From IMG/VR virus record IMGVR_UViG_2706794692_000008: a stretch of DNA of 4,506 nt, one strand, 5' to 3'. Positions 70 to 4,506 of this stretch are shown here, piece after piece; position 1 is the first letter of the stretch; every line of letters starts with the position of its first letter. The notes under the pieces are model-generated. The model was not told the origin of the DNA and did no database searches. It saw only the letters and a list, made by a program, of their open reading frames with translations. The stretch comes from a virus (lineage: Duplodnaviria; Heunggongvirae; Uroviricota; Caudoviricetes). Made by a program: the position numbers and the translations under genes.

Positions 70-772
70 GTGTCCGTTAAACTCAGGCTACCTCAGGTTA
101 TTCGCTTCTGGGCATGGGCGGATCAACAAATGATAGACGGTAATGCAGATTGTAACGCTCGCGGCGTTACAAAAAGTGCAATAGATCGCATCACTTTTAT
201 GTCTGGTTTTGCTGATGCGTTAATTCAGGTTGGATGGCTGGTCGAAAATGACGGAGGGCTTTCTCTACCTAACTTTGAACGTCATAACGGAAAAAGCTCT
301 AAAAAAAACGGGCGGTTACAAACGAGCGAGTAACAAAAATACGCGAACTGAAACGAAAAGGTAACGCTGCCAGCGTTACACAAACGGATCAAAAAGCGTT
401 ACCAGAGGAAGAGGAAGAGGAAGATCTAAATACTGATCTCCCCCTCGCCAAAAACGAGCGTCTAAAAAATTCGAGCCGGAGGCTATTGAGCTGCCCGATT
501 GGTTGCCGGAAACACTCTGGCATGAGTGGGTCCGGTTCAGACAGGCATTGCGAAAACCGATTCGAACGGAGCAGGGCGCTAACGGGGCGATACGGGAACT
601 GGAAAAATTCCGTCAGCAGGGTTTTACACCTGAGCAGGTGATTCGACACAGCATCGCCAATGAATACCAGGGCCTGTTCGCGCCGAAAGGTGTTCGGCCT
701 GAGACGTTGCTCCGACAGGTTAACACCGTCTCGTTGCCGGACAGTGCGATCCCGCCAGGCTTCAGGGGGTAA
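70..772 (+). pseudogene. DnaT-like phage replication/primosomal protein with interrupted reading frame (frame 1 70-333, frame 3 303-641 with no start, frame 2 437-772)
   Basis: GTG at 70 sits directly after AGGAAGGAG (62-69), and all three frames carry stops within nt 4-37, so the 5' end is uncertain. The last segment ends ...VNTVSLPDSAIPPGFRG, which matches my recollection of the E. coli DnaT C-terminus (...NTVSEPDSQIPPGFRG). The three overlapping open frames join into one coherent protein if one A is added to the A8 run (301-308) and one to the A6 run (464-469). The middle frame encodes a basic stretch (NERVTKIRELKRKGNAASVT) and an EEEEEE linker from (GAGGAA)3 at 405-422. Its stop (770-772) lies 6 nt before the dnaC-like start, the same adjacency as chromosomal dnaT-dnaC. 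Confidence 0.6.
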
Positions 773-778
773 CGGACC

Positions 779-1525
779 ATGAAAAATATTGCGACAGGCG
801 GCGTTCTGGAACGCATCCGCCGACTGACCCCGCCACATGTAACCGCCCCATTCAGAACGGTAGCGGAGTGGCGCGAGTGGCAACTTGCTGAAGGCCAGAA
901 ACGTAGCGAGGAGATCAACCGCCTGAATCGCCAGTTGCGGGTGGAAAAAATTCTGAATCGCTCAGGCATCCAGCCGTTGCACCGTAAATGCTCGTTTGCG
1001 AATTACCAGGTGCAGAACGACGGCCAGCGATACGCGTTAAGCCAGGCGAAATCCATCGCCGATGAACTGATGACCGGGTGTACAAATTTTGCGTTCAGCG
1101 GAAAACCTGGTACCGGGAAGAATCACTTAGCGGCAGCTATCGGGAATCGCCTGCTGAAAGACGGTCAGACAGTGATTGTGGTTACCGTGGCTGATGTTAT
1201 GAGCGCCCTGCACGCCAGCTATGACGACGGGCAGTCAGGCGAAAAATTTTTGCGGGAGCTGTGCGAAGTGGATCTGCTGGTTCTTGATGAAATTGGCATT
1301 CAGCGCGAGACGAAAAACGAGCAGGTGGTGCTGCACCAGATTGTTGATCGCCGGACAGCGTCGATGCGCAGCGTGGGGATGCTGACAAACCTGAACTATG
1401 AGGTGATGAAAACATTGCTCGGCGAGCGGGTGATGGATCGCATGGTCATGAACGGCGGGCGCTGGGTGAATTTTAACTGGGAGAGCTGGCGTCCGAATGT
1501 TAGCCATTCGAGGGTTGTTAAGTAG
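779..1525 (+). CDS. DnaC-like AAA+ helicase loader (phage replication protein)
   Basis: 248-aa ORF with ATG at 779 and a G-rich SD-like stretch (765-769). Walker A is FSGKPGTGKNHLAAAIG (G108 at nt 1100) and Walker B is LLVLDEIG. The overall pattern (CSFANY..., MLTNLN, LGERVMDRM, NFNW) closely matches E. coli DnaC as I recall it. Resembles the DnaC-like gene of Rac-type prophages (cf. ydaV), but the symbol is not asserted. Confidence 0.9.
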   Translation: MKNIATGGVLERIRRLTPPHVTAPFRTVAEWREWQLAEGQKRSEEINRLNRQLRVEKILNRSGIQPLHRKCSFANYQVQNDGQRYALSQAKSIADELMTGCTNFAFSGKPGTGKNHLAAAIGNRLLKDGQTVIVVTVADVMSALHASYDDGQSGEKFLRELCEVDLLVLDEIGIQRETKNEQVVLHQIVDRRTASMRSVGMLTNLNYEVMKTLLGERVMDRMVMNGGRWVNFNWESWRPNVSHSRVVK

Positions 1526-1539
1526 TTTCAGGAGGATTT

Positions 1540-1962
1540 ATGGCGAAACCTTTTACTCCCGAACAGCGGGAAGAACTGAAGACGCGAATTGTGGAACTCG
1601 TGCATCAGGACGGTCGGGTCACGATTCGGCAGTTGTCAGATGAAACAGGTATCAGTCGTGCGTCTGTCGGTCGCTTATGCATAGAACTGGTCGCAAGTGG
1701 TGATGTATATAATTCTGGCTACGGCTTATTCCCGTCTGAACAGGCTCGCAAGGACTGGCAAAGCGCCCGCAAAAAACTCTCGAGAGTAAAGGTGAGGAAA
1801 CCGGTTGTTGTTGATCCGGACCTTATCTGGTCATTACCTGACGGAGAAATACGCCGCTACGACAGGCGCCTGAATATAATCTGTCGCGAGTGCCGGAAGA
1901 GCGAAGCTATGCAGCGTGTACTGGCTTTCTATCAGGGTAATTTTCAGGAGGCGATACTGTGA
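1540..1962 (+). CDS. hypothetical protein, N-terminal winged-helix/HTH-like segment
   Basis: 140-aa ORF with AGGAGG (1530-1535) 4 nt before ATG 1540, starting 15 nt after the dnaC-like stop. The segment RVTIRQLSDETGISRASVGRLCIELVASGDV looks like a helix-turn-helix. Family not recognised. Confidence 0.6.
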   Translation: MAKPFTPEQREELKTRIVELVHQDGRVTIRQLSDETGISRASVGRLCIELVASGDVYNSGYGLFPSEQARKDWQSARKKLSRVKVRKPVVVDPDLIWSLPDGEIRRYDRRLNIICRECRKSEAMQRVLAFYQGNFQEAIL

Positions 1963-2019
1963 ATGAAATTAGCTATCAGGCTTCAATTACCGCTGGCATT
2001 CGCATCAAAGGAGAGGAGC

Positions 2020-2376
2020 ATGGAAATAAAACCAGAAGATGAGTTAAGCAATATCGTTTTATTTCCGGTAAAAGAGGATGACCCTCGTAATCAGGTTAAT
2101 TTTCTTTATGAGCCATCGGAAAGACCATATTGCCATCACGCCTCTGTACGGGTTGACGAAAAAGAGCGTCAGGTCCGCTGTAAAATCTGCGGTGCGGTTG
2201 TGGAGCCGTTTGACTGGATGCTCTCTGTGGCAAAAAGAGAAACCAGACTGGCAGATGATGTAAGGCTATTGCGCCAGGAGGAACAGGAAAGGCGGAGAAA
2301 TATAGAAAAGCTGATACAGATTGAGCGTAACGCGAAAGCGCGGATACGCAGGGCGACAAAATCCAGAACTGAATAA
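2020..2376 (+). CDS. hypothetical Cys/His-containing protein with basic coiled-coil-like C-terminus (alternative start ATG 1963)
   Basis: ATG 2020 is preceded by AGGAG (2009-2013) with a 6-nt spacer. The in-frame ATG 1963 directly abuts the TGA (1960-1962) of the upstream gene, with AGGAGG (1946-1951) 11 nt upstream, so a 137-aa form is possible. Contains YCHH...(17 aa)...CKICG, then a Glu/Arg-rich tail (RLLRQEEQERRRNIEKLIQIERNAKARIRR). Confidence 0.5.
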   Translation: MEIKPEDELSNIVLFPVKEDDPRNQVNFLYEPSERPYCHHASVRVDEKERQVRCKICGAVVEPFDWMLSVAKRETRLADDVRLLRQEEQERRRNIEKLIQIERNAKARIRRATKSRTE

Positions 2377-2413
2377 TTAAATTTAGCACTGTTAAAAATT
2401 TAATCCTTAACCG

Positions 2414-2444
2414 GAGGGATTTCTGCACCCTCAAATCATCAGGA
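2414..2444 (+). promoter_or_regulatory. candidate RNA hairpin with possible H-type pseudoknot, upstream of the queH-like gene
   Basis: Stem GAGGG (2414-2418) pairs with CCCUC (2428-2432) around a 9-nt loop AUUUCUGCA. Loop UUCUG (2421-2425) can pair with CAGGA (2440-2444) across an A-rich linker AAAUCAU. The downstream strand overlaps an AGGAG that has no start codon after it. Confidence 0.15.
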
Positions 2445-2523
2445 GACCACCCGAAAGGGCGGGGAGCAGTCACACATCTGTTTCCGATAGCCCCGTTCTA
2501 ATGCTACACTCTTTGATATTTTT

Positions 2524-3210
2524 ATGACCCCAATAAACATATTTATGACAGTTGCTGATTTCAAACGGCCCAAATTGGAGCTCCCAAACGGGGCAAACAA
2601 ACTACTACTGCACTCTTGCTGTGCTCCATGTTCCGGTGAGGTGATGGAGGCGCTTCAGGCCTCGGGAATCGACTACACCATCTTTTTCTACAACCCGAAC
2701 ATTCATCCTCAGAAAGAGTATTTAATTCGTAAGGATGAGAATATTCGCTTTGCTGAACAACACGGCGTGCCGTTTATTGATGCTGATTACGACACAGACA
2801 ACTGGTTTGAACGAGCCAAAGGAATGGAATGGGAGCCCGAACGAGGGATCCGTTGCACCATGTGTTTTGACATGCGTTTTGAGCGGACAGCGCTGTACGC
2901 CGCTGAAAATGGTTTCAGTGTGATCAGCAGTTCACTGGGCATTTCACGCTGGAAAAATATGCAGCAGGTTAACGACTGTGGGCGGCGAGCCGTCGCGCAT
3001 TATCCGGGCATGGTGTACTGGGATTATAACTGGCGCAAGCAGGGCGGCTCGTCCCGTATGATTGAAATCAGCAAGCGCGAAAAATTCTATCAGCAGGAAT
3101 ATTGTGGCTGTGTGTATTCTCTGCGCGATACCAATCTACACCGCAAATCTCAGGGACGCCCTCTTATCAAAATTGGTCAACTCCACTACGGTAAAGAAGA
3201 GAAGGAGTGA
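2524..3210 (+). CDS. queH: QueH-like (DUF208 family) epoxyqueuosine reductase
   Basis: 228-aa ORF with the [11 protein letters not shown] motif (Cys codons 2617-2631), the hallmark I associate with DUF208/QueH, plus further conserved-looking Cys pairs (CTMCFD, YCGCVY). No clear SD before ATG 2524; an in-frame ATG at 2545 is an alternative start. Possible weak promoter TTCCGA (2482-2487), 17 nt, TACACT (2505-2510). Confidence 0.75.
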
Positions 3211-3231
3211 TTTTATGGGGCACCTTTCTGA

Positions 3232-3261
3232 TTGATTTCATATTGGCGAGGTAAGTAGAAT
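3232..3261 (+). promoter_or_regulatory. candidate sigma70 promoter reading into the masked region
   Basis: TTGATT (3232-3237), 18-nt spacer, TAGAAT (3256-3261). Predicted transcription start near 3268, just before the hairpin at 3280-3316. Confidence 0.35.
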
Positions 3262-3355
3262 GACTGCGGGTGCTTGAGGCTATCTGCTTCAGGCATGAAC
3301 ACCAAAAGGCAGATAGAGAAAAGCCCCAGTTAACATTACGCGTCCGGCAAGACGC

Positions 3356-3605
3356 NNNNNNNNNNNNNNNNNNNNNNNNNNNNNNNNNNNNNNNNNNNNN
3401 NNNNNNNNNNNNNNNNNNNNNNNNNNNNNNNNNNNNNNNNNNNNNNNNNNNNNNNNNNNNNNNNNNNNNNNNNNNNNNNNNNNNNNNNNNNNNNNNNNNN
3501 NNNNNNNNNNNNNNNNNNNNNNNNNNNNNNNNNNNNNNNNNNNNNNNNNNNNNNNNNNNNNNNNNNNNNNNNNNNNNNNNNNNNNNNNNNNNNNNNNNNN
3601 NNNNN
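3356..3605. other. run of 250 N (masked or unresolved sequence)
   Basis: Directly visible. Content and true length are unknown; any ORF drawn across it is uninterpretable. Confidence 1.
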
Positions 3606-3629
3606 CATCCTCAACGCACCCGCACTTAA

Positions 3630-3672
3630 CCCGCCCATCGCTGTGATCTCTCAGCGTTTCGGCGGGTTTTTT
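3630..3672 (+). terminator. intrinsic (Rho-independent) terminator
   Basis: CCCGCC (3630-3635) pairs with GGCGGG (3661-3666), with an inner helix CGCUG (3639-3643) / CAGCG (3652-3656), followed by T6 (3667-3672). The reverse complement has no T-run, so it is + oriented. Confidence 0.6.
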
Positions 3673-3692
3673 GTTGTTTATTTCCGGTGAAT

Positions 3693-3720
3693 TTGATTCG
3701 CGCACCTTCGCAGATAGAAT
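3693..3720 (+). promoter_or_regulatory. candidate sigma70 promoter for the 95-aa ORF and DUF1367-like gene
   Basis: TTGATT (3693-3698), 16-nt spacer, TAGAAT (3715-3720), the same hexamers as the promoter candidate at 3232-3261. It lies about 80 nt upstream of ATG 3802. Confidence 0.4.
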
Positions 3721-3801
3721 CGACTCACTTAAGTAGCGCGCAGGGAGAAGAGGGATGGACCCCGAACAGGGGAGAGCTATTTATCTGGAAGGATTCTGAA
3801 G

Positions 3802-4089
3802 ATGAAAATCGAAGAATTGCGTGAAATTTTTAGTGAAAATGGCCTCTATGCTGTGCGCGTTGAGAATGGAGCGATTGTCAGCCATTGCCGCATTAGATGT
3901 TTGCAATCTCAACAAAGGAAGAGCGGTGCTGTGTTATTTTATTTTTGTAATGGACTTCTGACGGACGGTTTTATTTTGCGTGAGGACGAATTTGTCACAT
4001 CATTACGGGTTTTGAAAGAGATTGGTTTTAAGGCTGGTTTTCTGCTTTTGCTGAAGAATAAACTCATCTACAATCTTGAGCAGGATTGA
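3802..4089 (+). CDS. hypothetical protein (95 aa), AT-rich
   Basis: ATG 3802 is preceded by GGAAGGA (3787-3793) with an 8-nt spacer. Composition is noticeably more AT-rich than the replication genes. The stop TGA (4087-4089) is 38 nt upstream of the next gene's probable start. No family recognised. Confidence 0.5.
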   Translation: MKIEELREIFSENGLYAVRVENGAIVSHCRIRCLQSQQRKSGAVLFYFCNGLLTDGFILREDEFVTSLRVLKEIGFKAGFLLLLKNKLIYNLEQD

Positions 4090-4127
4090 ACTCCTGCTGT
4101 GTAACACCGTGCCACCGGAGAAAGCCG

Positions 4128-4481
4128 ATGGCACATATACAACTGGTCAAACAAACCTCTTCCGGATTACTTCTCCCGGCGACGCCGGAGAGTTGCGATT
4201 TTCTGCATCAAATCAAAATAGGTGAGTGGATACACGCAGACTTTAAGCGTGTGTGTAACTACGCATTCCACAAGCGTTTTTTCAAACTCCTGCAACTGGG
4301 TTTCGATTACTGGACTCCGGTCGGTGGGGCGATCACGCCTCGCGAACGAAAACTGGTGTCCGGTTTCGTTGATTACCTGTGTGAATCAGTAGGCCGGGAA
4401 CATACGCCAGCTCTGAGCGAAGCCGCAGAGCAATTGAGGTGTACTGGCAATAGCGGACACTACCATTTGTTCTTTTTTTAA
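4128..4481 (+). CDS. DUF1367-like phage nin-region protein (tentative family call)
   Basis: ATG 4128 is preceded by GGAG (4117-4120) with a 7-nt spacer; the track's longer ORF begins at TTG 4086. The N-terminal pattern (HIQLVKQTSSGLLLPATPESCDFLHQIKIGEWIHADFKRVCNYAFHKRFFKLLQLGFDYW) resembles what I recall of DUF1367 proteins in lambdoid nin regions. The stop TAA (4479-4481) follows a T7 run, 25 nt from the window end. Confidence 0.55.
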   Translation: MAHIQLVKQTSSGLLLPATPESCDFLHQIKIGEWIHADFKRVCNYAFHKRFFKLLQLGFDYWTPVGGAITPRERKLVSGFVDYLCESVGREHTPALSEAAEQLRCTGNSGHYHLFFF

Positions 4482-4506
4482 GCAGCCATCTGATGATATT
4501 TTTCCC

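Follow-up and report, generated by a model that had tools for sequence, protein, structure and literature searches.

What is hidden beneath the run of undetermined bases that interrupts an otherwise compact transcription unit in this phage-derived DNA? The window (the whole stretch of 4,506 nucleotides analysed here, IMG/VR record IMGVR_UViG_2706794692_000008) contains a promoter, a short leader, a run of 250 N and an intrinsic terminator, and an initial annotation, made from the letters alone, took this to be a small RNA gene or a small protein gene in a cargo position. By combining features of the visible flanks with unmasked relatives in public genomes, we identify the unit, almost certainly, as a hokD-type hok/sok toxin–antisense-RNA module situated in a decaying lambdoid prophage. 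The locus itself is already known: RefSeq names the gene hokD, and the mechanism of such modules is textbook knowledge from plasmid R1. Taken as a whole, the initial interpretation is partly supported; what it missed is the family, the antisense gene, whose 3' end is visible on the minus strand at 3316-3355, and a long-range pairing between 3268-3279 and 3609-3621.

Visible boundaries of the masked unit

The coordinates of all features are collected in Table 1. The N-run, which is the only one in the window, comprises exactly 250 N as the initial annotation had it, and is preceded by the sigma70-like promoter described there, which matches 9 of 12 consensus positions in a promoter scan that returned two sites within 3100-3900 against 0.5 expected from shuffles. 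The -10 hexamer ends 7 nt upstream of the point at which the RNA family model RF01794 begins (model position 1) and, in an alignment made with the unmasked proxy sequence described below, falls on the -10 of the R1-type hok promoter, for which the hexamer TATGAT is reported (PMC9841398). A second promoter-like site, TTGATT-16-TAGAAT at 3693-3720, has both hexamers in common with the hok promoter; it follows the hok terminator directly and precedes rem (3802-4089, PF27490) by ~80 nt.

The 8-bp hairpin noted initially between promoter and mask is also present, CTATCTGC (3280-3287) being the exact reverse complement of GCAGATAG (3309-3316) when read directly from the sequence; in the minimum free energy (MFE) fold it grows to 10 bp (3280-3289/3307-3316) by addition of a G-U and an A-U pair. 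This stem-loop lies inside the consensus structure of RF01794, and its counterpart in the aligned R1-type locus is CTTTCTGCC...GGCAGAAAG. At the far end of the unit the clean intrinsic terminator of the initial annotation proved to be real, folding of 3606-3675 giving a G+C-rich outer stem of 8 bp and an inner stem of 5 bp with an energy of -24.7 kcal/mol (z -4.7) that none of 200 shuffles equalled. A simple terminator scan of 3100-3900 flagged no terminator, because the loop, with the inner stem that it contains, exceeds the 3-8 nt limit of such a scan. The loop (3636-3660) holds a 23-nt insertion, found in 5 of 71 viral loci, that forms the inner CGCUG/CAGCG stem, whereas relatives without this insertion have at the same position a simple CCCGC-UUCG-GCGGG-U6 hairpin. 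Neither queH nor rem, the two flanking genes, was found to continue into the unit, and the open reading frame at 3270..3629 listed with the initial annotation is purely an artefact, which exists only because the Ns were read through.

Table 1. Positions of the features of the masked unit, numbered from the first letter of the window
Feature	Position	Strand	Details
hok mRNA promoter	3232..3261	+	-35 TTGATT 3232-3237, 18-nt spacer, -10 TAGAAT 3256-3261
tac (translational activator), predicted hok mRNA 5' end	3268..3279	+	GGGUGCUUGAGG; RF01794 position 1 at 3268
hok mRNA 5' leader stem-loop	3280..3316	+	8 perfect bp, 3280-3287/3309-3316
Sok antisense RNA gene (candidate), visible 3' part	3316..3355	-	Descending terminator-hairpin arm and U-rich tail
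Alternative local tac partner (putative ucb / anti-SD, R1 nomenclature)	3321..3327	+	AAGCCCC
250-N mask	3356..3605	+	Replaced by one identical 291-nt sequence in 10/10 identical-flank loci
fbi (fold-back inhibitory)	3609..3621	+	CCUCAACGCACCC; 12 bp and one bulged C with tac
hok mRNA intrinsic terminator	3628..3672	+	Outer stem 3628-3635/3661-3668, inner stem 3639-3643/3652-3656, U6 run 3667-3672

In an E-value search of 3200-3355, positions 1-58 of the 157-position RF01794 model matched 3268-3327 with 57.6 bits (E 8e-13); the match is on the plus strand, in the sense of hok, and starts at GGGUGCUUGA, 7 nt after the -10 hexamer. Model position 1 thereby coincides with the transcript start that the initial annotation had predicted near 3268. 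At the gathering threshold (score 59) the window gave no match to RF01794, because two thirds of the model lie under the mask; in the unmasked relative L001 (3469-3644) the full model, 1-157, is matched with 117 bits (E 1e-26). No tRNA and no match to another Rfam family was found. Although RF01794 carries the name 'sok antitoxin', it matches the hok-sense strand, from tac to the hok AUG, and scores 13 bits only on the antisense strand.

The predicted 5' end of the transcript, tac, finds its best partner in the whole window on the other side of the mask, in the segment corresponding to fbi. When the right flank was shuffled 2000 times with its dinucleotide content kept, 3 shuffles attained the energy of this duplex, -21.5 kcal/mol; the same pairing forms the closing helix in the MFE fold of the full-length proxy mRNA. 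Amongst unique viral hokD-type loci tac is near-invariant (50 of 51), and the pairing is retained in ~46 of the 50 unique viral relatives with a recognisable tac, the bulged base being variously C, U or A. Covariation of tac with fbi was not found within the hokD subfamily (51 unique viral loci), in which tac is almost invariant; in comparison with the R1 type, one pair is changed on both sides, being C-G in R1 and U-A here. The RF01794 consensus structure additionally pairs model positions 1-8 with 52-58, equivalent to 3268-3275 with 3321-3327 of the window, and homology to the R1 model suggests that the latter segment may act as ucb, or anti-SD (PMC9841398). The leader match and the tac–fbi pairing exceed chance, and what can be seen of the flanks, namely tac, the leader stem, the 3' end of Sok, fbi and the terminator, suffices to diagnose a masked hok locus.

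The masked interior in unmasked relatives

Megablast of 2400-4506 against complete E. coli genomes returned two records, 99.8-99.9% identical and spanning both sides of the mask, each of which has 'hokD' annotated under the match. As proxy for the hidden part we used E. coli FDAARGOS_944 (locus L001, with the unit at L001 3433-3915), whose identity to the window is 99.5% left of the mask and 99.9% right of it, the 200 nt next to each mask edge being free of mismatches; its window-type gene is annotated as hokD by RefSeq. Ten further contigs were obtained by exact-protein lookup of the 95-aa ORF of the window (Rem, PF27490). One locus, L094, matches the window at 100% throughout 1-424, 404-3355 and 3606-4506, both IS junctions included, and differs from it only in the number of GAGGAA repeats; this hexamer repeat (window 404-424) is 18 nt longer in L093 and 30 nt longer in L094 than in the window and L001. 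A scan of genome contigs with a 34-nt left-flank anchor yielded four loci (E. coli, Shigella flexneri and two MAGs), all unmasked and all with hok, of which none is identical to the window.

In all 10 public loci that have the exact 40-nt flanks of the window on both sides, the interior is one identical sequence of 291 nt, which contains the rest of Sok with its putative promoter region, the mok Shine-Dalgarno (SD) sequence and ATG, the 51-aa hok ORF and a 3'-UTR hairpin. In L001, 291 nt (3557-3847) thus separate the flanks that are separated by 250 N in the window, and since the N-run is 41 nt shorter than this interior, coordinates inside the mask do not correspond 1:1 to those of relatives. 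No interior variant of ~250 nt was present amongst 4637 matching E. coli records, sampled by spread, in which matches to both flanks span 652 nt as against 611 nt in the window. Given ten loci with a single 291-nt interior and no ~250-nt variant, the N-run is most likely a placeholder of fixed size rather than a length-preserving mask. As the masked 250 nt of the window are unreadable, and the interior of relatives measures 291 nt, we infer the identity of the hidden part from these relatives, and put the chance that the hidden sequence is something other than the hok/sok interior at a few per cent.

The alternative to be weighed here is that the hidden 250 nt differ from those of relatives, by virtue of a private 41-nt deletion, other cargo or a genuine assembly gap, and hold no intact hok/sok. 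The discrepancy in length applies to every relative with the same flanks, and no recovered record is identical to the whole window, even L094 still differing in GAGGAA number; both points would accord with a divergent interior. Nevertheless, we consider it very improbable, as the flanks are 100% identical over at least 200 nt on each side in loci that have one common interior, the mask separates the two halves of long-range structures specific to hok (tac from fbi, as well as the arm of the Sok hairpin), a round 250 N has the look of a placeholder, and the E. coli sample contained no interior of that length. The view that the interesting part is exactly what is hidden was, on this evidence, overrated, for that part can be recovered from public genomes, where it is annotated as hokD.

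Read in the proxy, the interior encodes a 51-aa Hok, MKQQKAMLIALIVICLTVIVTALVTRKDLCEVRIRTGQTEVAVFVDYESRK, the ATG of which lies 83 nt past the left mask edge and the stop codon of which ends 53 nt before the right edge. The protein scores 81.1 bits (E 4e-23) against Pfam HOK_GEF, PF01848 (cut-off 22 bits), for the interior of the 10 identical-flank loci, and is identical to K-12 HokD at 47 of 51 residues. The codon for Tyr47 is situated in CUACGAA (L001 3774-3782, under the mask), which resembles a tRNA-Arg(ACG) anticodon loop; A-to-I editing of hokD mRNA, converting Tyr to Cys at this C-terminal position, is described in the literature. A mok ATG with a GAGG Shine-Dalgarno sequence occurs 57 nt upstream of the hok ATG in the proxy, in frame with it and with a 70-aa product. 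From predicted start to U-run the proxy mRNA measures 445 nt and folds with an energy of -189.6 kcal/mol (z -8.3), the 5' 12 nt being paired to the fbi segment and the terminator forming a separate 3' hairpin.

The arrangement of mok varies amongst relatives. In 40 of 56 unique loci (L001 3582-3794 and the viral loci L009-L088) it begins at -57, in frame with hok (70 aa); in 8 it is out of frame at -58 (68 aa), and in 4 it takes the form of a 19-codon uORF whose UGA overlaps the hok AUG (AUGA). These shifts of frame between close relatives suggest that selection favours translation across the region, not the Mok peptide as such. The idea that an in-frame mok is in itself unusual was rejected, this being the majority form and also that of the R1-type locus examined.

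The opposite strand of the proxy contains a candidate for Sok, of ~70-75 nt (L001 3517-3591, minus strand), in which a single-stranded 5' tail, able to pair with the mok AUG and SD, is followed by a long hairpin and UUUUCUC; its folding energy is -30.4 kcal/mol (z -5.1). The last 40 nt of this candidate (L001 3517-3556) are those visible in the window at 3316-3355, with 0 mismatches. The conserved TAGCCTCTTAC...CAAGGAGAAG block of the proxy contains, in minus-strand orientation, a putative Sok promoter, TTGCCT-17-TAACCT, which has only 7 of 12 consensus matches and was not flagged by a consensus scan of the minus strand. It aligns with TTGCGC-17-TATCCT of the R1-type locus, hexamers that we take to be the R1 Sok promoter, and the putative promoter is assigned by this homology and by position.

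The two options of the initial annotation, a small RNA gene or a small protein gene, turn out to apply together: the 51-aa hok toxin within a structured mRNA of ~445 nt, and an antisense Sok of ~70 nt on the opposite strand. That the unit is instead a stand-alone plus-strand gene for a small non-coding RNA, or a small protein gene of the ordinary kind, with no antisense control, is barely credible. The compact promoter-to-terminator layout would suit such a gene, as would a visible 5' part without a credible ORF; against this, a PF01848 toxin is encoded in the interior of all identical-flank relatives, the visible leader is a hok 5' UTR (E 8e-13), and a Sok-like hairpin with U-tail is present on the opposite strand.

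Prophage setting and relation to known hok loci

With its QueH–hok–rem–DUF1367 setting the unit belongs to the late-early (nin) region of a lambdoid prophage remnant of Rac/Qin-like type, where hok/sok, as a moron, is flanked by queH and rem; the initial description of a compact, discrete transcription unit in a cargo (moron-like) position was correct. Genes in L001 run in the order YdaT-like, hypothetical, ydaV, DUF977, second hypothetical, QueH and hokD, continuing after hokD with the 95-aa ORF, DUF1367, DUF1364, DUF1133 (Q-like), four tRNAs, holin and lysozyme. The QueH epoxyqueuosine reductase gene (2524-3210; PF02677, 221 bits) is prophage cargo immediately upstream of hok, and the four-tRNA cluster (Ile, Arg, Thr, Gly) of L001 is found further downstream in the same prophage.

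Both ends of the window are derived from an insertion sequence: 1-96 and 4435-4506 are the two termini of an IS3-family element of ~1265 bp and match L092 2209-2304 and 1040-1111, respectively, at 100%. With IS termini at both ends of the window, the prophage fragment 97-4434 is placed between two IS copies. The DUF1367 gene is cut at 4434. At the other end, 70-772 is a broken homologue of the 262-aa gene that lies upstream of ydaV in L001, its lesions being a gain of 2 nt at 299-306 (A8 in place of A6) and a loss of 10 nt after ~442; the ORFs at 70-333 and 503-772 are fragments of this pseudogene.

For comparison with the classical system, an R1-type locus was found by means of the R1 Hok peptide, which has 100% matches in many IncF plasmids. 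The hok/sok (parB) locus of plasmid R1 and R1-type IncF plasmids aligns with the proxy end to end, from the -10 box to the terminator. Common to both types on the 5' side are tac at +1, the 5' stem, ucb, the Sok target and the mok SD (GAGG); these are joined by the TAGCCTCTTAC and CAAGGAGAAG blocks, with the putative Sok promoter region and hok SD, and on the 3' side by a ~51-aa Hok (PF01848) and by fbi followed by the terminator. Differences are found in the tac–fbi helix, which in the R1 type consists of 7 contiguous bp (tac GGCGCUU with AAGCGCC) but in the window type is extended by GAGG/CCUC to 12 bp and a bulge, and in the leader, where the Sok-target/Sok hairpin of the window type is longer by ~18 nt at its tip. 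The window-type mRNA measures ~445 nt, whereas R1 hok mRNA is ~398 nt in length, and the locus resides in a prophage here and on a plasmid in the case of R1. The proxy Hok is far closer to K-12 HokD than to the R1-type Hok.

The hokD (relF) gene in the Qin prophage of E. coli K-12 is homologous to the window-type locus only over a stretch that opens 14 nt before the ATG and runs to the fbi region, with 90% DNA identity, and likewise has rem as its neighbour. The K-12 copy, however, has none of the 5' leader, be it promoter, tac, Sok target or mok, and is located directly downstream of relBE. As the window type keeps the full regulatory apparatus, whilst K-12 hokD is without the leader, the former looks like the complete and unrearranged version of a locus of which K-12 has a truncated copy.

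The annotated gene order in the Rac-type phage MN652886 (Rac-SA53), mok, hok, rem, irsA (DUF1367), ybcO, Q, is the one seen here, and the mok/hok loci of Rac-type and Stx/PPompW-type lambdoid prophages show 84-95% DNA identity. The present locus differs from loci of both types in the upstream neighbour of hok, which is queH here, and in the 23-nt insertion in the terminator loop; its mok is in frame with hok at -57, as against out of frame at -58 in Rac. Homologues of Hok are reported to be enriched in prophages and to be present in 9.3% of Escherichia phages (bioRxiv 10.1101/2025.08.07.668861). A more distant parallel is provided by aapA/IsoA of Helicobacter pylori, which follows the same logic in that an inert mRNA, closed by a long-range 5'–3' interaction, is activated by 3' trimming and the antisense RNA acts on the trimmed form, as in hok/sok (PMC9841398); its sequences, toxin family and antisense geometry are unrelated to those of hok/sok, so that the resemblance is one of analogy only.

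Proposed regulation and biological role

The promoter, leader fold, tac–fbi closure, Sok-like antisense hairpin, mok and hok ORFs and terminator were observed in the window or its proxy. The mechanism set out here is supported at the level of sequence and structure, and its remaining elements are taken from the plasmid R1 paradigm (PMC9841398). Transcription from the sigma-70 promoter at 3232-3261 would give rise to a hok mRNA of ~445 nt, starting near 3268, in which tac (3268-3279) is locked to fbi (3609-3621) and the mok/hok ribosome-binding region is kept closed, so that the full-length RNA would be neither translated nor bound by Sok. Slow 3'-exonucleolytic trimming would then remove the terminator and fbi, whereupon the 5' end may refold onto 3321-3327 (the ucb region) and open the mok start and SD; translation of the mok leader ORF would be coupled to that of the 51-aa membrane toxin Hok. 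The short, unstable Sok, transcribed from the opposite strand, with its putative promoter under the mask and its 3' end at ~3316-3320, would base-pair to the trimmed mRNA around the mok start and bring about its destruction through RNase III cleavage. Because Sok would in this way destroy the trimmed mRNA, killing is proposed to occur only once replenishment of Sok stops, either through loss of the element or through transcription shut-off. The inert full-length mRNA, its 3' processing, RNase III cleavage of the Sok–hok duplex and killing once Sok is lost are known for R1 (PMC9841398).

Prophage stabilisation or phage exclusion is a possible biological role. The main doubt on this point is whether the module, though hok/sok by descent, is a functionally silent relic, still transcribed and regulated but incapable of killing or of stabilising anything, as has been reported for several chromosomal hok loci of E. 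coli; this reading concerns function alone and is compatible with the hok/sok identification. The surrounding prophage is decaying, as evidenced by its IS3-family ends, truncated DUF1367 gene and frameshifted replication gene, and Tyr occupies, in the proxy Hok, the C-terminal position that is reported in the literature to be edited to Cys in hokD mRNA, the disulfide formed with the corresponding Cys in HokB being needed for toxicity according to the literature. Past tests of chromosomal hok/sok loci, as recounted in the introduction to a recent preprint, detected no post-segregational killing (bioRxiv 10.1101/2025.08.07.668861), so that intact anatomy is no proof of activity and loss of function remains a serious proposition. 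Nevertheless, we consider it the less likely case, since the promoter, tac, fbi, mok start, hok ORF, Sok hairpin and terminator are all intact in the proxy, the 291-nt interior is identical across 10 independent loci, the HokD peptide was toxic in the assays of a 2026 preprint, and it is the classic 'rearranged' copy, K-12 hokD, that is without the whole 5' leader present here.

Stronger claims for this particular copy appear distinctly doubtful, namely that an intact hokD/Sok keeps the decaying IS-flanked fragment fixed, through addiction or anti-phage abortive infection, that the lineage-specific 23-nt insertion alters the kinetics of 3' trimming and hence toxin timing, or that a private 41-nt deletion is present. 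Were the reading of the terminator-loop insertion true, the timing of toxin activation would be changed. On the preferred hok/sok reading the mask conceals no unknown RNA or protein gene, and its resolution matters little beyond housekeeping. The locus would nonetheless serve as an example of a complete, unrearranged hokD, the leader of which has been lost from the reference copy in K-12.
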